Source: Escherichia phage phiAPCEc03. From it: a stretch of DNA of 64,000 nt. How positions within the stretch are numbered: position 1 is the first letter of the stretch; the number at the start of each line of letters is the position of its first letter. The position numbers and the translations under genes are program-made. Below, one piece after another: positions 1,614 through 28,726 of the stretch. The DNA lies in the sequence record NC_047754.1, one strand, 5' to 3'. The notes beneath the pieces are model-generated. The model was given only the letters and a program-made list of their open reading frames with translations, ran no database searches and was not told where the DNA came from.

Positions 1614-3371
1614 ATGGGTTTTTTCGCTGGAAAGTATAGCGATGGTAAGACCGTACTATCTTTAAATACTGAATCTGGGGGTGACATTAATCGTCACTAT
1701 AGTCCAAATAATAATAGTATTTTTCATAGTGATATGCCATTTGTCCTAGTTGATGGTACTTACGAGGCTGGGTTAGGTGATGCCGGAAATGGGTTTTTCG
1801 TATGTCAGATGCCTCCTGATATAGTAAATATTAAATCTAATGATCCTGGTAGAGTTATACTAACTGCTATTGAAATTAACGGCACTCACAGAGCTTTTCT
1901 TAATGGTACTCAGAGTAAGGTTGGTCAAACTATAGTTGCCACTCAAGCTGATCCCTTTAGATCTTTTGCTAGTGTTTCTCAAACTAGTGGATTTGCATTT
2001 GGTAATAGTCTAGCATCTGGAACTTATAATTATAATTCATCGATAGGGCACGAAGAATCTATCTCTAGGAGTGGCACAGGGGGTACTACATTACATAGTA
2101 CCTACCATGGGATAGTTAGGCCCGGTGCGGGAGCTCCTGTAGGTGTTACTGTTGCAGAAGCTTTTGCACAATTAGGGTTTCCTACTAACAGTAGCACAGT
2201 ACCTGTAGATGGGAATAACCCGTACTATTGGGATCCTGGATGGATGTCGCCTCTAGGAGCAGCACATAGAGGGCATGATTGGTTTTATGTTTGCAATTCT
2301 AATATACGTGGGTACGGTGGGGTTAGGCAAGGGCTCCCAGGTAATGTAAATACTATGTACCACGACGGCGGGAACAGATTTGTTTGTAGGGGATCTACTA
2401 CTAATCTAGCTAACCAGTCGGGTGACTCTACAATACTACAGGATTGGTATAATATAACTCCTACTAAGGTTATTTGGTATGTTCTTAACTTAAGGTACTC
2501 AAATGGCGGTATGAGTATTTCCGGCAATCCCTTTACTGGTTCTGATATTCTTATATCTCCTTCTAATTTCATAATTAAAGGGGTAAGTCTCCCGAATACT
2601 GGATATAAATTTATAAATCAGAATGCTTTTGGTAACCTAGGTTACCGTCCTGATATGGAGTATATAGGGAATAACGCAGCGTATACTGGGGTTTTTGGGG
2701 ATACCACGGCAAGGTGTGAACTTGTAGGGTCTAGTAATGGAGGATTATGGTCTCCTGTAGACTATGGTGGAGCTAAATCACAGATTAGCATTTATAGGTT
2801 CGGAGTAGGTAAACAGTGGTATGTAAACTCTAACGATAATACTATTGGTAACGAGCATGGAGTTGTTTGGGGACCATCAGCAGTTCCACTGCGACTTTTT
2901 GGTGGAAATGTAGGTAGTTCTTATATGGGAGATGATATTACTCCTAGCTACCCAGGAACGGGTGATAGATACGTTGGTTTATCAACTATTGGGCTAGGTA
3001 TACCAGGCGGAAATGCTACAGTAATTCTTACTACTGAAGTTATATCAGGTAATCTTAATTGTGCGGGTGTTCCAGCTAATACATGGAATAACGGTGTGTT
3101 TCAAGTGCAAGGAAGAAGAGCATATAGCTATAGCGGCGGGGATGCAATATTCCACCAGATTTTAACGCTACCTGTGGGCTATCTAGTACCTTTTCATACT
3201 ACATCTGCTTTTAGATATACACCTAACAATGCTCTAAGTAGAAACAGTTTTATATATACAGTTAAAAATCTAGGAAATGGAAATGTGGAGTTAGGGGTAG
3301 TTATGCACGTGAGTTTGGGTAGTGCAGTTTTCCTACCTAGATTAAGAGTAACAGTTCAACGCCTTACCTAA
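1614..3371 (+). CDS. receptor-binding tail protein (T5 pb5/Oad-like)
   Basis: 585 aa; N-terminus [24 protein letters not shown] and C-terminus RVTVQRLT resemble my recollection of T5 pb5; Gly/Asn-rich; SD AGGAG; adjacent divergent llp. Confidence 0.7.
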
Positions 3372-3381
3372 AGGAGGAAAT

Positions 3382-3864
3382 ATGGCAAATGATGTATTAG
3401 TACCAGATCTTATGTCCCCTGAAGGGATGGATGTGATTGAAGCTTATTTACAGTGCGGCAGCGATGTGCCTTCTGCCGCACGTAGTCTTGGAATGTCCGA
3501 AATTGCTTTCCGAGATATTATGAATCGTAGTGAAGTTAAGAACTACTTAAATGATATTTTTATGGAAAGTGGATTCCGTAACAGGGATCGTTTGTTTGGT
3601 GTTCTAGATGAAGTTATTAAACGTAAACTAGAGGAACTGGAAGAAACTGGCATGGGTTCTGACCAGGATATTATGGATATTCTCTGGAAAGCACACAAGA
3701 TGAAGATGGAAGAGATGAAAATGATGGTAGAGTTAGAAAAAGCTAAAGCTGCCGTTCGAGCTCCTGCTAATCAGACCAATATCCAGAATAACATTATTGC
3801 TGGAGCTGGGGATCAAAACTACATGGACTTAATTACTTCCCTGGCTACTGGAGGTAAGAAATAA
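3382..3864 (+). CDS. putative terminase small subunit
   Basis: 160 aa ORF immediately upstream of and abutting large terminase (stop/start overlap); helix-turn-helix-like N-terminal region; SD AGGAGG. Confidence 0.5.
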
Positions 3865-5180
3865 TGGAAGTATCAAGACCCTACGTTAACACAGTAGATG
3901 TTATTGATTTCGGAATAGACAAACGTTTCTTTCGTTTACCTGTTTCAGGAATACTAGCACAAGAAGGTATTACACCTAATGGTCCTCAAATAGCGATTAT
4001 CAATGCGCTAGAAGACCCTAGACATCGTTTTGTAACGGCGTGTGTATCGCGCCGTGTGGGCAAGTCCTTTATAGCATATACACTTGGATTCCTAAAATTG
4101 CTGGAACCCAATGTGAAGGTACTAGTAGTTGCTCCTAACTACTCACTGGCCAACATCGGATGGTCTCAGATTCGTGGTCTTATTAAGAAGTATGGCCTAC
4201 AAACTGAACGTGAGAACGCTAAAGATAAAGAGATTGAGTTAGCTAATGGTTCTCTGTTTAAACTAGCTTCCGCGGCTCAGGCTGACTCCGCAGTTGGACG
4301 TTCATATGATTTTATCATTTTCGATGAGGCGGCAATTTCCGATGTGGGTGGTGATGCCTTTAGGGTTCAGTTACGTCCTACTCTAGATAAACCTAATTCT
4401 AAAGCTCTATTTATTTCCACCCCTCGTGGAGGTAACTGGTTTAAAGAGTTTTACGCCTATGGATTTGATGATACGTTACCTAACTGGGTGTCTATTCATG
4501 GTACATACCGTGATAACCCTCGTGCTGACCTGAATGACATTGAGGAAGCACGTCGTACAGTTAGTAAAAACTACTTCCGCCAGGAATACGAGGCCGACTT
4601 CTCTGTATTCGAAGGCCAGATCTTTGATACCTTTAATGCTATCGATCATGTTAAAGACCTCAAAGGTATGCGTCACTTCTTTAAAGATGATGAAGCATTC
4701 GAAACATTGCTTGGTATTGACGTTGGTTATCGTGATCCTACAGCAGTTCTTACTATTAAGTACCACTATGATACAGATACCTACTATGTATTAGAAGAGT
4801 ACCAGCAGGCAGAGAAAACTACAGCGCAACATGCTGCGTATATTCAGCACTGTATAGATCGTTATAACGTAGATCGTATCTTCGTTGACTCCGCGGCTGC
4901 CCAGTTCCGTCAGGACTTAGCTTATGAACATGAAATTGCATCAGCTCCAGCTAAAAAATCTGTCCTAGACGGTCTAGCATGCTTGCAAGCGCTATTCCAG
5001 CAAGGCAAGATTATTGTAGATGCTTCATGTTCCTCATTAATCCATGCGTTGCAGAACTATAAATGGGACTTCCAAGAAGGTGAAGAAAAATTATCACGTG
5101 AAAAACCACGTCATGATGCTAACTCTCACCTCTGTGATGCGCTGCGCTATGGAATTTACTCTATTTCCCGTGGTAAATAA
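3864..5180 (+). CDS. terminase large subunit
   Basis: 438 aa, same length as T5 large terminase; ATPase N-terminal region and nuclease C-terminal region; position before portal. Confidence 0.85.
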   Translation: MEVSRPYVNTVDVIDFGIDKRFFRLPVSGILAQEGITPNGPQIAIINALEDPRHRFVTACVSRRVGKSFIAYTLGFLKLLEPNVKVLVVAPNYSLANIGWSQIRGLIKKYGLQTERENAKDKEIELANGSLFKLASAAQADSAVGRSYDFIIFDEAAISDVGGDAFRVQLRPTLDKPNSKALFISTPRGGNWFKEFYAYGFDDTLPNWVSIHGTYRDNPRADLNDIEEARRTVSKNYFRQEYEADFSVFEGQIFDTFNAIDHVKDLKGMRHFFKDDEAFETLLGIDVGYRDPTAVLTIKYHYDTDTYYVLEEYQQAEKTTAQHAAYIQHCIDRYNVDRIFVDSAAAQFRQDLAYEHEIASAPAKKSVLDGLACLQALFQQGKIIVDASCSSLIHALQNYKWDFQEGEEKLSREKPRHDANSHLCDALRYGIYSISRGK

Positions 5181-5294
5181 ATAAATATAGGAAGGGATAC
5201 TACTCAGTTGGTATCCCATTCCTGCATTTTAAAATCCCCTTTACAAATTCGATACGATTATGTATACTATATTCATACAGTTGAGGAGAACACT

Positions 5295-5732
5295 ATGGCA
5301 AGCAATATAAAATATAAACGCGATGCTATATCCCTTATGAGAGACGGAATAAAAAGTCAATATAAAAAAGACTCTCAATGTGCTATCTGCGGTTGTGCTG
5401 AAGAATTAGAGCTTCATCATTACCATACGGTGTCTCTACTAGTTAAAAAATTTGCTAAAGAACTCCAATTGGATTTCACTGACGAAGAAACAGTCCTTTC
5501 AAATAGGACGGCATTCTATGATCGATATAGGCATGAGCTAGTAGAAGACACTGTTACCCTTTGTGTACACCATCACCAATTATTACATAAGGTTTACACA
5601 AAAGAACCTCCTTTATTTTCTGCTAATAAGCAAAAAGTGTGGGTTCAAAAGCAGAAAGACAAATTACAGAATCCTCAAGAAAAGACACAAGTCAAGACTG
5701 AAACAAAATCAGGATTCGCAAGGTTCTTATAA
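5295..5732 (+). CDS. HNH endonuclease (Cys/His-box type)
   Basis: CAICGCAEELELHHYH ... CVHHHQLLH metal-binding pattern; ATG at 5295 preceded by GAGGAG SD (ORF track's upstream start at 5208 is unlikely); sits between terminase and portal. Confidence 0.6.
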   Translation: MASNIKYKRDAISLMRDGIKSQYKKDSQCAICGCAEELELHHYHTVSLLVKKFAKELQLDFTDEETVLSNRTAFYDRYRHELVEDTVTLCVHHHQLLHKVYTKEPPLFSANKQKVWVQKQKDKLQNPQEKTQVKTETKSGFARFL

Positions 5733-6949
5733 TGGGTTTTAAAAGCTGGATTACTGAAAAGCTAAATCCGGGTCAACGTATTATAAGAGACATGGAACCA
5801 GTTAGTCATCGCACTAACCGTAAGCCTTTTACCACTGGACAAGCCTACAGTAAAATTGAGATTCTCAATAGAACTGCTAATATGGTTATAGATAGTGCGG
5901 CGGAGTGTTCTTATACTGTCGGAGATAAATATAATATTGTCACGTATGCCAATGGTATCAAGACAAAGACTCTAGACACTCTCTTAAATGTACGACCTAA
6001 TCCATTCATGGATATAAGCACATTCCGTAGACTTGTAGTCACTGACCTACTTTTTGAAGGTTGTGCATACATCTATTGGGATGGCACAGCACTTTACCAT
6101 GTCCCTGCTGCACTAATGCAAGTAGAGGCAGATGCCAATAAGTTTATCAAAAAATTTATATTTAATAATCAGATAGACTATCGCGTAGATGAGATTATCT
6201 TTATAAAGGATAACAGTTACATGCGCGGCACAAATTCTCAAATTTCTGGACAATCTCGTGTTGCTACTGTTATTGATTCTCTTGAGAAGCGTTCTAAGAT
6301 GCTTAACTTTAAAGAGAAATTCCTCGATAACGGAACCGTGATTGGTCTTATTCTTGAGACGGATGAAATCCTGAACAAGAAATTGCGTGAGCGTAAACAA
6401 GAAGAATTACAACTAGATTATAATCCTAGTACTGGTCAGTCCTCTGTCCTGATTCTAGATGGTGGTATGAAAGCTAAACCGTACTCCCAAATATCCTCTT
6501 TTAAAGATCTAGACTTTAAGGAAGACATTGAAGGATTTAATAAATCTATCTGTCTAGCCTTTGGTGTTCCGCAAGTACTGATTGATGGTGGTAATAATGC
6601 GAACATTCGACCAAACATCGAATTGTTCTACTATATGACTATCATCCCTATGCTGAACAAACTGACTAGTTCTCTTACTTTCTTTTTTGGTTATAAGATT
6701 ACTCCTAATACTAAGGAAGTAGCTGCATTAACACCAGATAAAGAATCTGAGGCTAAACATTTAACCTCATTGGTTAATAATGGTATTATAACTGGTAACG
6801 AAGCTCGTTTAGAGCTGAACCTTGAACCTTTAGATGATGAGCAGATGAATAAGATTCGTATTCCTGCTAACGTTGCTGGTTCTGCAACAGGCGTATCTGG
6901 TCAAGAAGGTGGTAGACCTCAAGGTTCCACCGAGGGAGATAAAGAATGA
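5732..6949 (+). CDS. portal protein
   Basis: 405 aa; position after terminase and before protease/capsid; size close to T5 portal pb7. Confidence 0.8.
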   Translation: MGFKSWITEKLNPGQRIIRDMEPVSHRTNRKPFTTGQAYSKIEILNRTANMVIDSAAECSYTVGDKYNIVTYANGIKTKTLDTLLNVRPNPFMDISTFRRLVVTDLLFEGCAYIYWDGTALYHVPAALMQVEADANKFIKKFIFNNQIDYRVDEIIFIKDNSYMRGTNSQISGQSRVATVIDSLEKRSKMLNFKEKFLDNGTVIGLILETDEILNKKLRERKQEELQLDYNPSTGQSSVLILDGGMKAKPYSQISSFKDLDFKEDIEGFNKSICLAFGVPQVLIDGGNNANIRPNIELFYYMTIIPMLNKLTSSLTFFFGYKITPNTKEVAALTPDKESEAKHLTSLVNNGIITGNEARLELNLEPLDDEQMNKIRIPANVAGSATGVSGQEGGRPQGSTEGDKE

Positions 6950-18930: not shown

Positions 18931-21776
18931 AAAAAATACTAGATAGTGCTAGAAACTACTTAAAAAATAATAGCAGAATAAAAACTGCTAGTCTAATTTC
19001 CCTAGAATTACCTGGCTCTACTGGTACTAGTACTGCTTTTATTTATTTAACTGATTATTTTAGAGATGTACTATATAATGGTATTTTGTACCAGGCCGGT
19101 AAGGTTAAGTCCATTAGCACACATAAACAAAATAGAGATTTATCTATTGGCAGTCTATCTTTTACTATTACAGGTACAGCGCAGGATGAAGTACTAAAAC
19201 TAGTGCAAAATGGTGTATCCTTCTTAGATAGAACCGTATCAATTCATCAAGCAATTATTACTGAAGATGGTTCTATTCTACCAGTAGACCCCGATACAAA
19301 TGGTCCTTTACTATATTTTAGAGGGAGGATTACTGGAGGGGGTATTAAAGATAACATTAGTACCTCTGGAGTAGGAACCTCTACAATTACCTGGAATTGT
19401 TCTAACCAATTCTATGACTTTGATAGAGTTAATGGTAGATATACTGATGACGCTTCCCATAGGGGGCTTGAAGTTGTAGCTGGACAGTTAGTACCATCTA
19501 ATGGTGCTAAAAGACCAGAGTATCAAGAAGACTACGGCTTCTTCCACTCTAATAAAAGTATCTCTATCCTAGCAAAATATCAGGTTCAAGAAGAAAGATA
19601 CAAGCTAAAATCAAAGAAAAAATTATTTGGTTTATCTAGAAGCTACAGCCTTAAAAAATACTATGAAACTGTCACTAAGGAAGTGGATATAGATTTTAAC
19701 CTTGCTGCTAAATACATACCGGTGGTTTATGGAGTTCAAAAAATTCCTGGAATACCCATTTTTGCTGATACAGAACTACACAATCCCAACATAGTTTATG
19801 TCGTATACGCCTTTGCTGAGGGGGAGATTGATGGTTTTCTTGATTTCTCCTTTGGTGATAACCCTATGATCTGCGTAGATGCTAATGACAGCTCCGCTAG
19901 AACCTGCTTTGGTACTAAAAAAATAGCAGGAGATACAATGCAGAGGATAGCATCTGGAACCTCTTCTAGTAGTCCATCCGTCCATGGTCAAGAGTATAAG
20001 TATAATGATGGAAATGGTGACATAAGGATTTGGACTTATCACGGAAAATCTGATCAAACAGCCTCTGAAGTACTAGTAGATATAGCTAAAGAACGTGGAT
20101 TCTACCTTCAGAATATGAATGGCAATGGGCCGGAGTACTGGGATGCTAGATATAAGCTACTAGATACTGCATACGCAGTGGTGCGCTTCACTATTAATGA
20201 AAATAGGACTGAGATTCCAGAAGTTAGTGCTGAAATTCAAGGTAAAAAAGTAAAAGTCTATCATTCTGATGGTAGAGTAACTGCTAATAGTACTAGTTTA
20301 AATGGTATTTGGCAAACACTTGATTACTTAACCTCTGATAGATATGGCGCTAATATTACCATTGATCAGTTCCCCCTTCAGCAATTAATACAGGAAGCAT
20401 CTATTTTAGATATTATAGATGAATCCTATCAGGTATCTTGGCAGCCATATTGGAGATACGTTGGGTGGACTGATCCACTAGCAGAAAATAGACAAATAGT
20501 ACAAATGAATACTATTCTGGATACATCTGAATCAGTATTTAAAAATGTGCAAGGTTTGTTAGAGTCCTATGGTGGGGCTATTAACAATTTATCTGGCCAG
20601 TATAGGGTTACTGTAGAAAAATACTCTAATACTCCCTTAGAGATTAATTTTCTAGATACTTACGGTGATTTGGAGCTATCAGATACTACTGGTAGAAATA
20701 AATTCAACTCAGTTCAAGCATCTATCGTAGATCCCGCCCTTAGCTGGAAAACTAATTCTATTACATTCTATAATTCCAAGTATAAGGAACAGGACAAGAA
20801 CCTAGATAAAAAATTACAACTATCTTTTGCTAATATTACTAACTACTATACTGCAAGAAGTTTTGCGGATAGAGAACTTAAGAAATCCAGATACTCAAGA
20901 ACACTTTCTTTCTCATTACCATACCAGTTCATAGGGATTGAACCCAATGATGCTATTGCATTCACGTATGACCGTTACGGGTGGAACAGAAAGTATTTCC
21001 TAGTTGATGAGGTTGAAAACTCTAGAGAGGGTAAGATAAATGTTACCTTACAGGAGTATGGAGAGGATGTATTCATCAACTCTGAGCAGGTTGATAATAG
21101 CGGTAATGATATTCCTGATATTAGTAACAATGTCCTTCCTCCTAGAGACTTTAAATATACTCCTACTCCTGGCGGTTTAGTAGGCTCTATAGGTAAAAAT
21201 GGTGAGTTATCCTGGCTTCCGAGTCTAACCAATAATGTAGTTTACTACTCTATTGTGCACTCAGGCCATGCCGAACCTTACATAATACAACAGTTAGAGA
21301 CCAATCCTAACGAACGTATGATCCAAGAAATAATTGGGGAACCAGCAGGTCTGGCTATATTTGAGATAAGGGCAGTAGATATTAATGGTAGAAGAAGTTC
21401 CCCGGTGACTCTGTCTATAGAACTTAACTCTGCTAAAAACCTTAGTGTAGTATCTAATTTTAGGGTAACTAATACGGCCTCTGGGGATGTAACTGAGTTT
21501 GTCGGCCCAGATGTAAAACTAGCTTGGGATAGGATACCGGAAGAAGATATAATAGAGAGTATATTTTATACCCTTGAAATACACGATTCACAAAATAGGA
21601 TGTTAAGAAGTGTACGTATTGAAAATCAGTATACTTATGACTATTTATTAACGTATAATAAGGCAGATTTTGCTCTCCAGAACAGCGGTGCTCTAGGTAT
21701 AAATAGAAAATTGTATTTTCGTATTAGGGCTGAGGGGAATGATGGAGAACAGTCTGTGGAGTGGGCATCCATTTAA
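18927..21776 (+). CDS. baseplate hub protein (T5 pb3-like)
   Basis: 949 aa (same as T5 pb3); canonical position after distal tail protein. Confidence 0.75.
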   Translation: MKKILDSARNYLKNNSRIKTASLISLELPGSTGTSTAFIYLTDYFRDVLYNGILYQAGKVKSISTHKQNRDLSIGSLSFTITGTAQDEVLKLVQNGVSFLDRTVSIHQAIITEDGSILPVDPDTNGPLLYFRGRITGGGIKDNISTSGVGTSTITWNCSNQFYDFDRVNGRYTDDASHRGLEVVAGQLVPSNGAKRPEYQEDYGFFHSNKSISILAKYQVQEERYKLKSKKKLFGLSRSYSLKKYYETVTKEVDIDFNLAAKYIPVVYGVQKIPGIPIFADTELHNPNIVYVVYAFAEGEIDGFLDFSFGDNPMICVDANDSSARTCFGTKKIAGDTMQRIASGTSSSSPSVHGQEYKYNDGNGDIRIWTYHGKSDQTASEVLVDIAKERGFYLQNMNGNGPEYWDARYKLLDTAYAVVRFTINENRTEIPEVSAEIQGKKVKVYHSDGRVTANSTSLNGIWQTLDYLTSDRYGANITIDQFPLQQLIQEASILDIIDESYQVSWQPYWRYVGWTDPLAENRQIVQMNTILDTSESVFKNVQGLLESYGGAINNLSGQYRVTVEKYSNTPLEINFLDTYGDLELSDTTGRNKFNSVQASIVDPALSWKTNSITFYNSKYKEQDKNLDKKLQLSFANITNYYTARSFADRELKKSRYSRTLSFSLPYQFIGIEPNDAIAFTYDRYGWNRKYFLVDEVENSREGKINVTLQEYGEDVFINSEQVDNSGNDIPDISNNVLPPRDFKYTPTPGGLVGSIGKNGELSWLPSLTNNVVYYSIVHSGHAEPYIIQQLETNPNERMIQEIIGEPAGLAIFEIRAVDINGRRSSPVTLSIELNSAKNLSVVSNFRVTNTASGDVTEFVGPDVKLAWDRIPEEDIIESIFYTLEIHDSQNRMLRSVRIENQYTYDYLLTYNKADFALQNSGALGINRKLYFRIRAEGNDGEQSVEWASI

Positions 21777-23833
21777 TGATTTCAAATAATGCACCAGCCA
21801 AAATGGTCTTAAATAGTATAATGACTGGATATACTTTGGCTTATGTCCAGCACTCCATTTATACTGATTATGATGTTATTGGTAGATCTTTTTGGTTAAA
21901 AATAGGAGAAAGTATAGATAGACGTGATTACACCGGTATAGATACTTTCTTCGTAATGATTAATAATCTAACCCCCTCTACCTCCTATGAGATTCAGGGG
22001 GCTTTCTATGACTCAATTATTGACTCAGAGTTACTGGAAGCTAAGATTGGTATCAACCTCTCTAATGAAACTAATTTTAGAACAAAGGAAAAGCCAATAA
22101 TTGTTGCAGCAAGATCTGAATCAGAACCCGTCGACGTTGGTGTTGGTGCTCCAATAGTTGTTGTAGAGACTGCTGGTGAAGCTAGTTACTGCACTATTGA
22201 ATTAAAAAGTACTGCATCAGAAGACAGTGAATGGGTTAAGTATTATATAGGTGCGCTGGGACCTACTATCAAATTTGGTGGTGTTCCTGTTGGAGACTAT
22301 AAGATCAGAATATCTGGTCAAGTTACGATGCCAGATGGTGTTACAGTTGACTCATCTGGCTATTATGAATATCCTAGCGTTTTCACTGTAGCTTATAATT
22401 TCGTACCACCTACTGCACCTACTAACATTGCCTTTAAAACTGCACGAATCGCAGACGGTAAGGAACGATATGATGTTAGAATAGAATGGGACTGGGAACG
22501 TGGTGCTGGTGCTAATGTCCGTGAATTTCTGGTTACTTATATAAACTCTGAAGAATACGCTAAGACTGGTTGGGCTAAAGCTCAAAAGATAAACGTTGGG
22601 GCTGCTAGAGCTGCAACAATTATATCATTCCCATGGAAAGTTGAGCATACTTTTAAGGTATCATCAATTGCCTGGGGACCAAATAAGCAAGATATAACAG
22701 AATCAGCTCCTGTAACATTTATATTGAATGAAGATACTCCTCTAGACAACAGCTTTGTCAATGAGACGGGTATTGATGTTAATTATGCCTTTATTAAGGG
22801 CAGCATGAAAGATGGAGAAATCTGGAGACAGACATTCTTAATCGATGCAGCTACTGGTGCTATTAACATTGGTCTGCTAGATGAAGAAGGAAAAGCACCT
22901 ATTTCTTTTGACCCTATAAACCGTGTTGTTAACGTTGATGGTAAAGTAATTACTAGAGATATTAATGCTGCGAACTTTATCATGACTAACTTATCTGGTA
23001 AGGATAACCCAGCAATTTACACTCAAGGTAAATCTTGGGGGGATAATAACTCCGGTATTTGGATGGGTATGGATAATACCTCTGCCAAAGCTAAGTTAGA
23101 CATTGGTAATGCCACACAGTGGATTCGTTATGATGGTGATGTGCTACGTATTTCTAGTGGAGTAGTTATTGGAACTCCTAATGGCGATGTAGATCTTGGT
23201 ACTGGTATGCAAGGTAAGCAAACAGTATTTGTTTATAAGTTAGCAACATCTCTACCTGCTAAACCACTAGAACAAGATTATCCGCCTCCTGGTTGGTCAA
23301 AAACTCCACCTAACCGTACAGATATGACACAAAATATCTATGCCACTACAGGTACACTTGATCCCGTTACTAACAAACTTCTTGAAGGTACTAGCTGGTC
23401 TGATGTAGTTCAGTGGAGTGGTACTGAGGGTACTATAGGACATGATGGACAACGTGGTCCTGGGATGTACTCCTTAGGTATTCCTGGTCTTGGAGGCTGG
23501 GATGATGGACAAGCTAATGCCTTCTTCCAGAATAACTTTGGTAGTCCTCCTGTTAGATATGATGTATTAACCGAATTTAATAGTAATGCTCCACAATCAG
23601 CATTTACCAGACAATGGAATGGATCTGGGTGGGTGAACCCTGCAATGGTTCTTCATGGGAACATGATTGTTAATGGAACAGTGACGGCAGATAAAATTGT
23701 AGCAGGAAATGCTTTCTTGTCTCAAATTGGTGTTAATATCATTTATGATAGAAATGCTGCGTTATCCTGGAATCCTGAGGCATACTACAAGATGAAGATA
23801 GACCTAAATAGTGGGTATATCCATATAAGGTAA
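21761..23833 (+). CDS. central straight fibre / tail tip protein (T5 pb4-like)
   Basis: 690 aa; 16 nt overlap with hub gene; size close to T5 pb4. Confidence 0.65.
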   Translation: MGIHLMISNNAPAKMVLNSIMTGYTLAYVQHSIYTDYDVIGRSFWLKIGESIDRRDYTGIDTFFVMINNLTPSTSYEIQGAFYDSIIDSELLEAKIGINLSNETNFRTKEKPIIVAARSESEPVDVGVGAPIVVVETAGEASYCTIELKSTASEDSEWVKYYIGALGPTIKFGGVPVGDYKIRISGQVTMPDGVTVDSSGYYEYPSVFTVAYNFVPPTAPTNIAFKTARIADGKERYDVRIEWDWERGAGANVREFLVTYINSEEYAKTGWAKAQKINVGAARAATIISFPWKVEHTFKVSSIAWGPNKQDITESAPVTFILNEDTPLDNSFVNETGIDVNYAFIKGSMKDGEIWRQTFLIDAATGAINIGLLDEEGKAPISFDPINRVVNVDGKVITRDINAANFIMTNLSGKDNPAIYTQGKSWGDNNSGIWMGMDNTSAKAKLDIGNATQWIRYDGDVLRISSGVVIGTPNGDVDLGTGMQGKQTVFVYKLATSLPAKPLEQDYPPPGWSKTPPNRTDMTQNIYATTGTLDPVTNKLLEGTSWSDVVQWSGTEGTIGHDGQRGPGMYSLGIPGLGGWDDGQANAFFQNNFGSPPVRYDVLTEFNSNAPQSAFTRQWNGSGWVNPAMVLHGNMIVNGTVTADKIVAGNAFLSQIGVNIIYDRNAALSWNPEAYYKMKIDLNSGYIHIR

Positions 23834-23839
23834 TAAATA

Positions 23840-24262
23840 ATGAGTACTGAAAATAGAGTTATAGACTTAGTAATAGATGAGAAAGTACCTTATGGTCTAA
23901 TGATGCAATTCTTAGATGTTGATGATAGTACTTATCCCCCTACAAACACCCCTGTTAACTTAACAGGGTATTCTCTAAAGGGTACTATAAAGAATAGCCT
24001 TGATGAGAATGCGGAAACTTTGGCATCTTTTACTACTAAAATTATTGATGCTGCTCAAGGTGCTATAGCTATAAGTTTACCTGTAGAGGCGGTAGATAAT
24101 ATTGGTGAAAAAGCCACCAAAGAGAGAGATAAGTATAACCCTCGCCAACGTTTTGCAGGATACTATGATATAATTATGACACGAGATGTCATAGGATCAG
24201 CTATTAGCTCTTTTCGTATAATGGAGGGTAAAGTATTTATCAGTGATGGGGTAACTAGATAA
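23840..24262 (+). CDS. putative collar protein (T5 p132-like)
   Basis: 140 aa; immediately upstream of lateral tail fibre gene. Confidence 0.45.
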
Positions 24263-26709
24263 TGGCAATAACTACTAAGATTATTGTACAACAAATATTA
24301 AATATTGATGATACTAAAGCTACTGCTAGTAAATTTCCTAGATACACAGTAACTCTTGGAAACTCTATTAGCTCTATTACTGCTATAGAGTTAGTATCCT
24401 CTATAGAGGCCGCTGCTAAATCTGCTGCGGCTGCAAAAGATTCTGAAATAGCTGCTAAAACCTCAGAACTTAATGCTAAGAACTCTGAACAGGAAGCTGC
24501 TATTTCTGCTGGAGCTTCAGAAGCTTCTGCTAATCAGTCTGCTACCTCTGCTACTCAGTCCGCAGCGTCAGCCAATAAGTCTGCAGAATCCGCTGCCGCA
24601 GCTAAAATATCCGAGACTAATGCGAAGACTAGTGAAACTAATGCGAAGACTAGTGAAACTAACGCGAAGACTAGTGAAACTAATGCTGACGCATCAGCTG
24701 CTGCTGCAAAAATTAGTGAGACTAATGCAAAGGCAAGTGAGACTAATGCAGCTCAATCAGCTGCTGATGCAAAACTTAGCGAGGGTAACGCAAAGGTCAG
24801 TGAGACTAATGCAGCTCAATCAGCAGCTGATTCTAGCGGTTTTAGGAATGAGGCGGAAATATTTTCTGGGCAAGCTGCTGCATCGGCATCTGCGGCAAAA
24901 ATCTCTGAAACCAATGCAAAAACCTCGGAAACAAAAGCTAAGGCTAGTGAAACTAATGCTGCGGGATCTGCAACTTCTGCTAGCCAATCTGTAGCTACTA
25001 TTCAAGGACTTAAATCAGATGTCGAACAGTTAAAATCTGATACCCAGGACATTAAAAATAGTGCTATAACAGAGACAACAGCTTTAAAAGCGGATGTCGA
25101 ACAGTTAAAATCTGATACCCAGGCCATTAAAAATAGCGCTATAACAGAGACAACAGCTTTAAAAGCGGATGTTGAGCAACTAAAAACAGATACACAAGGT
25201 ATTAAGGATAGCGCGGTATCTGAGACAACAACTTTAAAAGATCAAGCTGCTGCTTCTGCTGCACAAGCAGGTAATAGTGCTGTTGAGGCCGGGCAACAAG
25301 CTAGCAATGCTGCTGGTAGTGCAAATAGCTCTAAAGTAGAAGCAGACCGTGCAAAGGCAGAAGCAGACCGTGCGGAAGTTGCAGCTAATAGGGATCCTGA
25401 TCTTCAACCATTCCCTGACGTATGGATTCCATTTAATGACTCGCTTGATATGCTCGCAGGTTATTCACCCGGCTATAAGAAAATAACAGTTGGTGAAGAT
25501 GTTATTACAATGCCTTCTGATAAGGTTGTTAGTTTCACGCGTGCGTCAAATGCAACATACATAAATAAGCATGGTGAATTTTGTATTGCTAATATCGATG
25601 AACCCAGATTTGAAAAGCAAGGACTCTTGATTGAAGGCCAGAGGACAAATCACATTACTTTCAGTAATGACCCCGCTTCACTAAATACAGATAAGCACCG
25701 TAGTGATGTTACTTATAATGTTGATAAGTATGGTTTTGCATATGCAACGGCTACAGCTAACGAAAATTCACATGGTGAGTACCCTTCATTATTTTATTGT
25801 AAAACCGTGAATGCAATCAACTGTCAGCAAAATGAATATGTTTCTTTATCTATACGAGTAAAGGCAAACTCGGATATCTATATCACCCCACAATTTTATT
25901 TAGTAGGTAAGGATGGAGGTCTTATTCTCGGTGCTAGATCTTTCATAAGTTGCGAAACCGGCGAAGTTTCTTCTGTAGTAGAAGGGAGGGGGACTATAGC
26001 ACATAGAATATATAGAGAAGACAACGGATGGTTGAAAGTTGAAGCTATGTGTAAATTTGTAGAACGTGGAGGTAGTTCTATTGGATCTGTAAATTATTGT
26101 CGGAATAATGATCAACCTTCGCAAGTTGGGGATACAATATCATTTTGTACTCCGCAATTTGAAAAGGGTTTTTGTGCATCCTCCTTCATTATTACGGGAA
26201 GCACTCCTGCAACAAGGGCTCTGGATTATGTTACTATACCTGCAAGAAATAATTTCTCAGGGACGAATATTTCATTCCTTGCTGAGGTAAGTATCAACTG
26301 GAATAGCTTTCAATTAGATAATATATACCCAATGATAGTGGATAACAACCACTACTTCGTAAGAGGAAAAGCATTTGTTGCGGAATTTGACAGAACCTCC
26401 GTTACACCTTACACGTATGTGGTAACTGAGGATGGATCAACTATTCTGTCCAGAGGTTATTCATTTGAAAAACAATTTTCTCCACATGTATTTGGTTTTA
26501 TTCTCAGTGGCGATGTAGAGGTCACCTCGTTTGTTAATGGTAATAGTGGTGAGACCTCACACGGTTCTACCTGGAAAGGAACGGACTCGGACGCACTAGT
26601 AGAAATAGGCGGTAGACTTTCAGATTCAACTAAATTGTATGGTCATATTCGTAACCTTAGAATATGGAATAGAGTATTAACAGATAGTCAAATGCGGGAG
26701 AAAGTTTAA
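24262..26709 (+). CDS. lateral tail fibre protein A (repeat-rich shaft, C-terminal LamG/concanavalin-like lectin-type domain)
   Basis: 815 aa; N-terminal half made of SETNAK and 25-aa DVEQLKSDTQxIKNSAITETTALKA repeats; C-terminal domain ends ...LYGHIRNLRIWNRVLTDSQMREKV, resembling the characteristic C-terminal strand of LamG-type domains. Confidence 0.7.
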   Translation: MAITTKIIVQQILNIDDTKATASKFPRYTVTLGNSISSITAIELVSSIEAAAKSAAAAKDSEIAAKTSELNAKNSEQEAAISAGASEASANQSATSATQSAASANKSAESAAAAKISETNAKTSETNAKTSETNAKTSETNADASAAAAKISETNAKASETNAAQSAADAKLSEGNAKVSETNAAQSAADSSGFRNEAEIFSGQAAASASAAKISETNAKTSETKAKASETNAAGSATSASQSVATIQGLKSDVEQLKSDTQDIKNSAITETTALKADVEQLKSDTQAIKNSAITETTALKADVEQLKTDTQGIKDSAVSETTTLKDQAAASAAQAGNSAVEAGQQASNAAGSANSSKVEADRAKAEADRAEVAANRDPDLQPFPDVWIPFNDSLDMLAGYSPGYKKITVGEDVITMPSDKVVSFTRASNATYINKHGEFCIANIDEPRFEKQGLLIEGQRTNHITFSNDPASLNTDKHRSDVTYNVDKYGFAYATATANENSHGEYPSLFYCKTVNAINCQQNEYVSLSIRVKANSDIYITPQFYLVGKDGGLILGARSFISCETGEVSSVVEGRGTIAHRIYREDNGWLKVEAMCKFVERGGSSIGSVNYCRNNDQPSQVGDTISFCTPQFEKGFCASSFIITGSTPATRALDYVTIPARNNFSGTNISFLAEVSINWNSFQLDNIYPMIVDNNHYFVRGKAFVAEFDRTSVTPYTYVVTEDGSTILSRGYSFEKQFSPHVFGFILSGDVEVTSFVNGNSGETSHGSTWKGTDSDALVEIGGRLSDSTKLYGHIRNLRIWNRVLTDSQMREKV
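24616..24678 (+). repeat. 21 bp tandem repeat x3 inside fibre gene
   Basis: actaatgcgaagactagtgaa repeated three times (third copy one mismatch), encoding TNAKTSE units. Confidence 0.8.
25018..25242 (+). repeat. 75 bp tandem repeat x3 inside fibre gene
   Basis: Unit starting gatgtcgaacagttaaaatctgatacccagg recurs at 25018, 25093, 25168 with increasing divergence. Confidence 0.8.
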
Positions 26710-26973
26710 GTGAAAGATATTAATTTACAATTCAAGGATGAAAAACATTATCTGGATGTTGTCGTTGATAGTGGGTGGCTTAAGACAAACTACGGTAACG
26801 TGTTTATAGATGAAATTGGTTTTATCCCTGTGGTAGACGACCCTAAAAGTAAAACCCCTGCTATTATTGGTAAAGAAGGTTATTACATAAATATAAGGGT
26901 AGGAGATAATATAGACTTGTCAGACATCGAACAATTCATTATTAAGAATCCCGATGTACGCAAATGGGCATAA
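26710..26973 (+). CDS. hypothetical small protein between the two fibre genes (GTG start)
   Basis: 87 aa ORF starting at GTG directly after the fibre A stop; no recognisable motif. Confidence 0.3.
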   Translation: MKDINLQFKDEKHYLDVVVDSGWLKTNYGNVFIDEIGFIPVVDDPKSKTPAIIGKEGYYINIRVGDNIDLSDIEQFIIKNPDVRKWA

Positions 26974-26983
26974 GAGGTGATCA

Positions 26984-28726
26984 ATGACTACTTATACTAA
27001 TATCCCCCAGGATATTACAAAACTTAAAGACGAAAAGATGGATAAAAACAACAATTTATCCGATCTTGCAGACCGTGCAGCAGCATGGTTAAATGTGCGT
27101 CCTATTGGGTCCACCCCTCTTGCGGGGGATCCTGTTGGGGACTATGATGCCGCAACTAAACGTTGGGTAGAGAATAAGATTAACACCGGTACAGTCGGTC
27201 CCACTATGAATGGTGTTATGAATTACGGTGTTGGTGATTTCCACCTTCGAGATAGTCGTGCGTATATCCAGCCGTACGAGGTGGTTTCTGATGGTCAGCT
27301 TCTTAACAGGGCTGACTGGCCGGAGCTTTGGGCATACGCTCAAAGGGTTGGTGTTATAGAGGATTCGGTATGGTTAGCTTATAAATTCCAGCGTGGAAAA
27401 TACTCTAATGGTGACGGAGCAACAACTTTTCGTGTTCCAGATAAGAATGGGGTGCAGGAGGGATCAATACGTGCTCTTTATGGCCGTGGAGATGGCGGGA
27501 ATAGTGGTGCAAATGGGCAACTGTTCGAATCCGCTGCGCCTAATATTACAGGCTTTTTCACCACATATTCCGCTCAAACTTACGGCCAGGTATTAGGTAT
27601 GACAGGTGGTTCTTTTACCACAAGTAATAAAATATTTCCGGAAGGAAAAGGAGACGGTATACCCCCAGGCACAGCGCCGCTCGCTGGGCGTTATAATACC
27701 TGCGACTTCAATGCCTCAATGTCAAGTCCGATTTACGGGGCATCAACTGATGAGATTCTTACACGAAACTTTGTCGGCGTGTGGGTAATACGGGCGTCCG
27801 GTGGTTTCGTTGCGGCAAATACATCATGGAGTGTAATAAACGCTGATGCTGCCAAACCTCCTACTGGTACAGTTGTAAGGGGTGGTAGTGTGAAGTCAGA
27901 ATACAAGATTGGCACAACTACTACGCATCAAGCATATCTGCAATCTTACGGAAAGATTGATGGATTGACGTCTGAACAAGGTGCAGTTATATCAAACGGG
28001 GTTCAAGAGTGGTCATTTAATCAAGCTGGGACTTTGTACTTCCCAAGCGCAGAAACTCAAATTGGCACGCTAAGGTCTGATGGCGCGCTACAGGTTAACG
28101 CATACGTACGAGCAAAAGACTTCGTTGCACAGCCATTAAACTCTGTTGGAGTTGCCGCTATAGAAAGAAACGCCATCAGAATGATTAACTACGCGAATGT
28201 GTCAGAAGGGTATTATGTAAACACTATAAGCGGCGATTGGTACGATGGAAGCTGGATATTTGGTGGTATTCGCTCCGGTAATAGGTTGTTAGATAGGGTA
28301 CAGCTTAATGTCTATAACGGAATCGGAGGAGCTGCATCTTATATTTTTGGGACGGATGGTATAGCAAAAGGTCAAGAATGGAGAAACTTATCCGACAAAC
28401 GCATTAAAAGTAATATTGAGCGTATAAACGATCCACTATCTAAGATGCGAAACATTAAAGGGGTTAAATGGGTACTAGAAACAAACGGCTCAGTTGGGTA
28501 TGGATTTATTGCTCAGGATGTAGAGAAAGACTTTCCTGAAGCAGTATCTGAAACTCAGTCATCACCTGTTACTCTGCGCGACGGTTCGACGTTGGATAAC
28601 ATAAAATCTGTTAATATGCCAGGTGTAGCAGCTGCACTGCACCACGAGGCGATACTTGCTTTGATGGAAAAGGTGGAGAACCTAGAAGCAGAATTAGCTG
28701 CATTAAAAGAAGCGAATGGTTCCTAA
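26984..28726 (+). CDS. lateral tail fibre protein B (phage tail-collar-type N-terminal domain, C-terminal intramolecular chaperone/peptidase S74 domain)
   Basis: 580 aa; N-terminal region has collar-domain pattern (GQLLNRADWPELWAYAQ...GDGATTFRVPDKNG); C-terminal ~120 aa (LSDKRIKSNIERINDP...GVKWVLETNGSVGYGFIAQDVEKDFPEAV...LEAELAALKEANGS) matches auto-cleaving chaperone domains of fibres and tailspikes; SD AGAGGTG. Confidence 0.7.
   Translation: MTTYTNIPQDITKLKDEKMDKNNNLSDLADRAAAWLNVRPIGSTPLAGDPVGDYDAATKRWVENKINTGTVGPTMNGVMNYGVGDFHLRDSRAYIQPYEVVSDGQLLNRADWPELWAYAQRVGVIEDSVWLAYKFQRGKYSNGDGATTFRVPDKNGVQEGSIRALYGRGDGGNSGANGQLFESAAPNITGFFTTYSAQTYGQVLGMTGGSFTTSNKIFPEGKGDGIPPGTAPLAGRYNTCDFNASMSSPIYGASTDEILTRNFVGVWVIRASGGFVAANTSWSVINADAAKPPTGTVVRGGSVKSEYKIGTTTTHQAYLQSYGKIDGLTSEQGAVISNGVQEWSFNQAGTLYFPSAETQIGTLRSDGALQVNAYVRAKDFVAQPLNSVGVAAIERNAIRMINYANVSEGYYVNTISGDWYDGSWIFGGIRSGNRLLDRVQLNVYNGIGGAASYIFGTDGIAKGQEWRNLSDKRIKSNIERINDPLSKMRNIKGVKWVLETNGSVGYGFIAQDVEKDFPEAVSETQSSPVTLRDGSTLDNIKSVNMPGVAAALHHEAILALMEKVENLEAELAALKEANGS

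Follow-up and report, generated by a model that had tools for sequence, protein, structure and literature searches.

The stretch of DNA analysed here, a window of 64,000 nucleotides from Escherichia phage phiAPCEc03 (NC_047754.1), carries on its plus strand, at positions 24262-26709, an open reading frame (ORF) of 815 residues for a lateral (L-shaped) tail-fibre protein of the LtfA type. Part of this protein is predicted to be a long helical rod, which is encoded by in-frame tandem DNA repeats, and the subject of this report is how the repeats are built, how their number differs among related phages and by which route whole units may be gained or lost. In T5-like phages it is the lateral fibres that touch the O-antigen first, in a reversible manner, and that decide infection of smooth hosts (PMC8594841, PMC10713586).

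The protein matches phrog_1419 ('tail protein'; E = 8e-227) and, in a phmmer search against the PDB, its residues 1-212 match chain d of entry 8hqz, i.e. LtfA of phage DT57C (E = 8.1e-34), the first ~102 residues being almost identical. With megablast, 89 phage records match, the best being those of Tequintavirus ESCO40 (93.5% nucleotide identity; counterpart annotated 'putative tail fiber protein'), NBEco002, FFH1, SP15 and AKFV33; the AKFV33 orthologue, ORF137, has been detected in virions by mass spectrometry (PMC3326045). The sole Pfam match in the 815-residue protein is to PF13385 (Laminin_G_3, a concanavalin-A-like lectin domain) at residues 655-810 (E = 2e-06; 28.5 bits, with a cut-off of 27.6). 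The Pfam search found no PF13884 (Peptidase_S74) chaperone domain in this protein; the domain sits in the 580-residue product of a downstream gene, and the lack of a C-terminal chaperone in LtfA identifies the AKFV33-type two-protein variant, as opposed to the T5 pb1 type.

Upstream of ltfA lie the gene of the straight-fibre protein pb4, in which all four PB4 domains were recognized by Pfam (21761-23833), and, on the plus strand at 23840-24262, a gene for a 140-residue ltfC/p132-like collar protein, the lateral-fibre anchor (PF23926 LtfC, E = 3.7e-15; phrog_34807, labelled as a collar tail protein for L-shaped tail fibre attachment). Downstream, also on the plus strand, follow a gene for an 87-residue protein conserved beside this fibre type (26710-26973; phrog_1361, E = 2e-26), which is syntenic in ESCO40, AKFV33, SelmaRatti and phages of the Queuovirinae, and one for a second, LtfB-like fibre protein of 580 residues (26984-28726; PF13884 at residues 470-521, E = 8.9e-12; phrog_6921, tail fiber protein). 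The order pb4, ltfC, ltfA, with ltfA directly downstream of ltfC, is the same in 16 related phage genomes, and in its gene content, with another fibre gene following ltfA, the locus resembles those of branched two-protein (LtfA + LtfB) fibres. The locus is, then, of the Tequintavirus type (pb4, ltfC, ltfA, 87-residue gene, ltfB-like gene); its genes make up the tail-tip module of a T5-like phage, ltfA lying in the late tail operon. Family and domain searches covered the five fibre-locus ORFs (21761-28726), identities elsewhere being taken from the annotations of syntenic relatives; on this basis, the window appears to comprise the block of late structural genes of a T5-like genome and, next to it on the opposite strand, replication genes. 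A preliminary description of this DNA had placed the repeats in a fibre shaft, correctly so in the light of the N-terminal match to DT57C LtfA, the position of the gene after ltfC and the predicted helical nature of the repeat region.

Tandem arrays and the architecture of the rod

Tandem Repeats Finder (TRF), run over the whole window, found three arrays in the region 24610-25242: a period-21 array at 24616-24686 (3.4 copies, 96% matches, score 135), a period-75 array at 25018-25240 (3.0 copies, 87% matches, score 313) and a period-63 array at 24651-24831 (2.9 copies, 84% matches, score 227), the last of which was missing from the preliminary description; no other array with a score above 64 was found anywhere in the 64 kb. 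The three periods are all multiples of 3, and every unit is read in the ltfA frame. In order to see whether such scores could arise from composition, the codons of residues 40-395, i.e. the shaft, were randomized 200 times and TRF was rerun: the best scores in the shuffles had a mean of 17.9 and went up to 72 at most, and none of the 200 reached 135 or 313, so that the arrays are no by-product of the Ala/Ser/Thr/Glu/Lys-rich composition. The 21- and 75-bp tandem arrays that had been described from the sequence do, therefore, exist, in frame and far beyond chance.

When read in frame, the 21-bp array extends over 24610-24693 (plus strand), with units starting at 24610, 24631, 24652 and 24673 that encode SETNAKT three times and then SETNADA. 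Units 2 and 3 are one synonymous base apart; unit 1 uses other Ser and Glu codons, which amount to four synonymous differences. The period-63 array, on the same strand, is of a higher order, each unit of it corresponding to three heptads. A second SETxAKx mini-array emerges from the heptad parse at 24904-24966 (plus strand; residues 215-235), where SETNAKT, SETKAKA and SETNAAG follow one another; the units number three in the window and three, four or five among relatives. The 75-bp array (25018-25242, plus strand) consists of three 25-residue units (residues 253-327) of types A, A' and B, which start at 25018, 25093 and 25168. Units 1 and 2 encode DVEQLKSDTQ(D/A)IKNSAITETTALKA and unit 3 encodes DVEQLKTDTQGIKDSAVSETTTLKD. 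Two of the 75 nucleotides distinguish copies 1 and 2 (97.3% identity). Copy 3 is more distant, with 19-20 nucleotides changed relative to either (73-75% identity); 8-9 of the codon differences are synonymous and 7 non-synonymous. The qualification 'perfect or near-perfect', which had been given to the repeats, is thus apt for the first two 75-bp copies and does not extend to the third.

These DNA repeats are the youngest duplicated or homogenized layer of a larger periodic rod. The protein begins with an N-terminal anchor (residues 1-40; 24262-24381, plus strand), in which the alignment-based AlphaFold2 model places two short β-strands, at residues 28-32 and 35-39, that would insert into the collar; β-strands followed by a helix from T40 have been described for DT57C LtfA by cryo-electron microscopy (cryo-EM; PMC10713586). 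From residue 54 to residue 249 (24421-25008, plus strand), 28 uninterrupted heptads with the consensus S-E/A-T-N-A-K-x follow: with the sequence set out in lines of seven residues starting at residue 54, the first position is Ser in 26 of 29 lines and the fifth is Ala or Ser in 27, and a Fourier analysis of the region peaks at 3.5 residues. By standard coiled-coil geometry, this 4/3 spacing of small residues would mark the core positions of a coiled coil. In the 25-residue units the hydrophobic residues (V2, L5, I12, A16/I17 and L23) are spaced 3-4-3-4-4-3-4, so that each unit can be described as 7+7+11, i.e. two heptads and one hendecad in seven helical turns; the periodicity peak over the units, 3.571 or 25/7, lends modest support to this description, being drawn from 75 residues only. 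The helical shaft ends in an Ala-rich segment (residues 328-376; 25243-25389, plus strand), helix being predicted up to residue 376, within which falls the 3' junction of a natural deletion in phage SelmaRatti described below. The remaining β-rich part (residues 377-815; 25390-26706, plus strand), with β-strands in a low-confidence model and the lectin domain encoded at 26224-26691, is presumed to be the distal, receptor-binding part of the fibre.

The AlphaFold2 model of residues 1-400, built as a monomer with 13 homologues, has a mean predicted local distance difference test score (pLDDT) of 71 and predicts helices at residues 41-190 and 200-376, with values of 75-93 over the repeats, the 25-residue units being the part that is modelled most confidently (86-93). 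Between the two confident helices, at residues 191-199 (24832-24858, plus strand), the pLDDT falls to ~40 in the segment SSGFRNEAE, which contains Gly and Phe, is the sole predicted break in the 335-residue helix and is kept in all relatives with a full-length shaft; judging from the model, it may be a candidate for the hinge of the 'L-shaped' fibre or for a docking point. The cryo-EM structure of DT57C LtfA shows N-terminal strands that augment the sheets of LtfC and, from T40 onwards, a helix, three of which wind into a coiled coil that leaves the collar (PMC10713586), and by homology the shaft encoded in the window is presumably trimeric as well. At ~0.15 nm per residue, the ~335 residues of the rod would measure roughly 50 nm, each heptad contributing ~1 nm and each 25-residue unit ~3.7 nm.

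In the database searches, the Ser/Ala heptad run is also matched by trimeric autotransporter adhesins (YadA-type Pfam domains, E ~1e-23; hits P0042-P0056) and by the phage depolymerase structures 7vyv, 7vz3 and 7lzj (E ~0.005), matches that probably reflect the periodic and compositional likeness of coiled-coil stalks and not homology. Two ORFs in alternative frames lie across the repeats, at 24473-24994 (plus strand, 173 residues) and at 24820-25005 (minus strand, 61 residues); they are rejected as genes because homologues and families match the LtfA frame only, and are by-products of the periodic sequence that could mislead gene callers. A non-coding or RNA role of the repeats is likewise rejected, as neither a tRNA gene nor an Rfam family at the gathering threshold was found in the window (1-64000).

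Copy number among related phages

The orthologous gene was collected from 16 phages in GenBank as well as from contigs of IMG/VR, which yielded 18 distinct full-length proteins, and heptads were counted between the fixed anchors SAAAAKD and the first DVEQLK. Nine genomes, the window included, have 28 heptads and five have 29, while 30 and 15 heptads occur in one genome each; AKFV33 has 24 heptads and a 3-residue register shift, and SelmaRatti, with 834 bp deleted and a protein of 537 residues, has none. The 25-residue unit is present three times in eight genomes and twice in six; Lindwurm has two units with an 18-residue spacer, and variants with units of 36 residues are found in L023 (25+36) and OSYSP (25+36+36). 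Among metagenome homologues the heptads number 4-20 (lower end ~4-6), with zero or one 25-residue unit at the low end. The short-shaft variants come from a word-indexed protein search made with the shaft, in which low-complexity words were dominant and 8000 candidates were scored, and which is no unbiased census, the matches listed all being shorter than 700 residues. The comparison of copy number among relatives, which the preliminary description had proposed, thus gives numbers that are far from identical everywhere: ~4 to 30 heptads across the whole range, and from 0 to 3 (or more) 25-residue units, besides the 36-residue variants.

Typing of the 75-bp units across genomes shows that three-copy arrays are A-A'-B and two-copy arrays A-B, which indicates that the middle, extra unit is a duplicate of A. 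Within genomes A and A' are 89-100% identical, and in PNJ1902 they are the same; in the window, unit 1 is equally similar (97%) to unit 1 of other genomes and to its own unit 2. Units 1 and 2 may undergo concerted evolution, although this is weakly resolved by the sequence comparison.

Closely related genomes give the clearest view of the individual steps. T5_ev219 and the IMG/VR contig L019 are 98.3% identical over 2352 aligned nucleotides and are separated by a single indel of exactly 75 bp. L073 and L074, from two independent human-gut metagenome assemblies (ENA ERZ914468 and ERZ1742470), align over 4905 nucleotides with 0 mismatches and a single 42-bp (two-heptad) indel in the SETxAKx array, at the counterpart of the 21-bp array of the window, their proteins being identical at 634 of 634 residues outside the indel. 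NBEco002 and AKFV33 are 98% identical, with indels of 30 and 63 bp, and AKFV33 lacks exactly one unit of the 63-bp array with respect to NBEco002, FFH1 and the window. These three near-identical pairs are, thus, set apart by indels alone (75 bp; 42 bp; 30 + 63 bp). To them can be added OSYSP and L023, the shafts of which are 97.3% identical and differ by a 21-bp and a 108-bp indel, the former lying in the mini-array that corresponds to 24904-24966.

The same pattern is found in 42 pairwise full-gene alignments, where the indels of the helical part are unit-sized (21, 63, 75, 252-294 and 834 bp) and those of the C-terminal part are small only. The largest is that of SelmaRatti (Bas34; L008, gene at 3001-4614), a natural in-frame deletion of 834 bp that removes the whole helical shaft (residues ~50-327), so that in its 537-residue protein the distal part follows almost immediately on the anchor, with the junction in runs of Ala codons. 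Whether the length of an indel equals 7a + 11b residues, i.e. a sum of heptads and hendecads, is informative for small indels only (7, 14, 21, 11 and 25 residues): any length above 59 residues can be so expressed, and large deletions are, therefore, no proof on register. As far as can be read from the genomes compared, the shaft does vary in length between them in unit-sized steps.

How the rod may change in length

The explanation that is favoured, with a probability of roughly 0.78, is that the repeats encode the proximal rod of the LtfA fibre of a T5-like phage and that the rod changes in length in whole units through misalignment of the repeats. The rod would be a long α-helical, presumably trimeric coiled coil made of 28 heptads, three 25-residue units and an Ala-rich tail. 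Neighbouring DNA units that are nearly identical could misalign, and replication slippage or unequal homologous recombination would then add or remove whole units; selection would keep those in-frame, register-compatible products that still assemble, so that fibres of differing length persist. The mutational route, be it slippage or recombination, and any effect on adsorption are inferred. Gain and loss of units have precedents in a laboratory mutant of DT571/2, the LtfA of which carries one extra copy of a 19-residue tandem motif (PMC4728585), and in the size mutants of streptococcal M protein, which arise in culture at ~1 in 2000 colony-forming units (CFU) by deletions in the repeat region that have been attributed to homologous recombination between repeats (PMC2188411).

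Several observations weigh against this explanation, and the most substantial of them concern the constancy of the rod. ESCO40 (93% identity), NBEco002 (92%), FFH1 (90%) and PNJ1902 have exactly the 28 heptads and three units of the window, and the 28-heptad length is common to 9 of 17 phage genomes despite differing internal repeat patterns, the period being 21 bp in the window and a perfect 42 bp in T5_ev219, both at 28 heptads. That the closest relatives have identical copy numbers means that change is occasional and not rapid, and the conserved length, in terms of the sequences, suggests stabilizing selection on length together with a low rate of change, or gene conversion without change of length. 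The same facts are what would be expected if the periodicity were static, i.e. if repeats were there only because a coiled-coil rod needs them, with length held by selection and copy-number differences that are ancient or rare; the third 75-bp copy, old by its divergence and by its balance of synonymous and non-synonymous differences from the other two, fits such a view as well. Static periodicity is, however, difficult to reconcile with pairs of genomes that are 98-100% identical and one unit apart, with first and second units that are 97-100% identical within genomes and, thus, require recent duplication or gene conversion, and with the repeat unit gained by the DT571/2 mutant in the laboratory (PMC4728585), and it is judged unlikely.

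Also to be set against change in whole units are some indels that are not of unit size. The 30-bp (10-residue) deletion in AKFV33 breaks the heptad register and is a real exception. In I14 (L002), SP15 (L005) and WP85 (L009) the arrays contain frame-breaking insertions of 28, 94 and 1 bp, at sites equivalent to 25090, 24766 and 24702 of the window, respectively; none of these is a whole repeat unit, and the ltfA genes in question are annotated as two to four fragments. Judging from sequence, the insertions could be errors of assembly or sequencing, or else genuine fibre-null variants; loss of the fibre would then be tolerated, since phages can do without lateral fibres on rough laboratory hosts (PMC10038345; PMC8594841). 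It had been proposed that fibre length would change without breaking the frame: whole-unit indels do leave the frame intact, but the insertions in these three phages split the gene, and the phrase describes the products that survive selection. As to the structure, the models are of monomers, the single-sequence model of the whole protein had a mean pLDDT of 44, which is weak support and led to its replacement by the alignment-based model of residues 1-400, and experimental observation of a trimeric coiled coil is limited to the initial residues of the helix in DT57C. Finally, the difference between L073 and L074 could be a repeat collapse in short-read assembly or, alternatively, a very recent change in copy number.

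A phase-variation switch, in the sense of a contingency locus that toggles the frame, is excluded by the fact that every unit is a multiple of 3. As a side observation, the record of I14 (PP892525.1, vB_EcoS_I14) is assigned by its taxonomy to Ounavirinae; Felixounavirus, while the genes of its locus (pb3, pb4, ltfC, ltfA, dUTPase, flap endonuclease) are those typically found in T5-like Demerecviridae; the taxonomy label in the database is probably wrong.

Besides building a rod, the units might form an array of docking sites for the LtfB-like fibre, the 87-residue protein or neighbouring fibres, in which case copy number would set stoichiometry or branching. LtfB does attach via LtfA in DT57C and DT571/2, and the authors of that work speculated that the extra 19-residue repeat compensates for the loss of LtfB (PMC4728585); yet SelmaRatti, without the helical shaft, retains the 87-residue and LtfB-like genes, the one-unit phages of the Queuovirinae retain the same downstream genes, and the partner genes co-vary with the C-terminal module and not with the repeats, all of which makes docking quite improbable. 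There is even less to be said for much of the copy-number variation in databases being a product of repeat collapse or expansion in short-read assemblies, in spite of the error-like insertions of I14, SP15 and WP85 and of the metagenomic origin of L073 and L074, since the two-unit and three-unit states recur in many independent and diverged isolates, the arrays are no longer than 225 bp with units that can be told apart (A and B), and the large in-frame deletions (834 bp in SelmaRatti, 294 bp in L024) are unlike a repeat collapse.

If, as favoured here, the rod changes in length through misalignment of its repeats, one may go further and regard the arrays as an evolvable ruler: length, for which the family offers a span of ~5 to 50 nm, would be adjusted by selection to how thick the O-antigen or capsule of the host is, or to the geometry by which the receptor-binding protein of the central fibre reaches its receptor in the outer membrane, and frequent gain and loss of units within populations would provide standing adaptive variation in host range or adsorption rate that is independent of the receptor-binding domain. 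This extension is tentative and, on balance, doubtful. What the comparison does offer is a view of a proximal rod with a modular build, in which steps of 7, 11 and 25 residues preserve the register, and of which nature has sampled forms from a few heptads to ~335 residues on the same anchor, the same distal domains being found on rods of different length. For phage engineering, the units represent a natural and tolerated change of fibre length (~1 nm or ~3.7 nm each), and for the question whether the reach of a fibre matters for adsorption they provide an experimental handle. The arrays are, moreover, points at which assemblies and annotations of T5-like phages break, as in the split 'tail protein' genes of I14, SP15 and WP85.

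Comparison with known fibres and rods

That repeat-encoded fibrous rods change in length by whole units is an already known principle. Among viral trimeric fibres, the adenovirus fibre shaft and T4 fibritin differ between relatives in the number of their repeats or segments, which sets their length. The adenovirus shaft is a triple β-spiral of 15-residue pseudo-repeats, with no coiled coil, the segments of fibritin are separated by loops and neither protein is homologous to LtfA. Streptococcal M protein, too, is a surface coiled-coil rod made from in-frame tandem repeats, but it is bacterial, dimeric and unrelated. For T5-like fibres, the literature searched, the coverage of which is incomplete and, therefore, no proof of novelty, yielded no account of how the shaft is built from heptads and 25-residue units or of how its length varies.

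The closest structural reference is LtfA of DT57C and DT571/2 (PDB 8hqz chain d; PMC4728585, PMC10713586), encoded at the same position after ltfC in a two-protein fibre locus. The N-terminal ~100 residues of the DT57C protein are near-identical to those of the window, and its helix, likewise beginning at about residue 40, is a three-helix coiled coil. The in-frame tandem motif of DT571/2, the copy number of which changed in the laboratory mutant, is 19 residues long and lies after the region of contact with LtfB, whereas the units of the window have 7 and 25 residues and lie in the proximal coiled coil. At the C-terminus, the window protein has a concanavalin-A-like lectin domain and no detectable intramolecular chaperone, and its total length is 815 residues, compared with 1076 for DT57C and DT571/2 LtfA.

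AKFV33 ORF137 ('LtpA') and its counterparts in FFH1, ESCO40 and NBEco002 are orthologues (90-93% nucleotide identity) that share the C-terminal module and are likewise followed by the 87-residue and LtfB-like genes; ORF137 has 784 residues, being without 30 + 63 bp of the heptad arrays, and coiled coils were predicted in it by COILS at residues 249-276 and 314-346 (PMC3326045). The single-protein L-shaped fibre of T5, pb1 (Ltf), has a homologous N-terminal anchor and the same Ser/Ala heptad start (as seen in the T5-type N-termini of P0018 and P0027). Its binding to O-antigen is reversible, and rough hosts can be infected without it (PMC10038345; PMC8594841). It differs in its length of 1396 residues, its other distal part and its C-terminal intramolecular chaperone (PMC4690869).

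The same module is also found outside the T5-like phages. The lateral fibres of two Queuovirinae phages, the Seuratvirus SA126VB (L071, locus at 1943-6090) and the Nonagvirus BRET (L072, locus at 1804-5994), which are unrelated 60-kb phages, share the 25-residue unit, the Ala-rich tail, the C-terminal lectin-like module and the 87-residue and LtfB-like genes, with 82-93% nucleotide identity from the 25-residue unit onwards (25162-28726 of the window). In place of the T5 collar anchor they have an N-terminus of the lambda-Stf type. SA126VB has one 25-residue unit, and BRET has one unit and two extra 11-residue sub-repeats. From these alignments, the sharing between Queuovirinae and T5-like phages is read as an exchange of modules across families, the junction of which lies in the helical repeat region.

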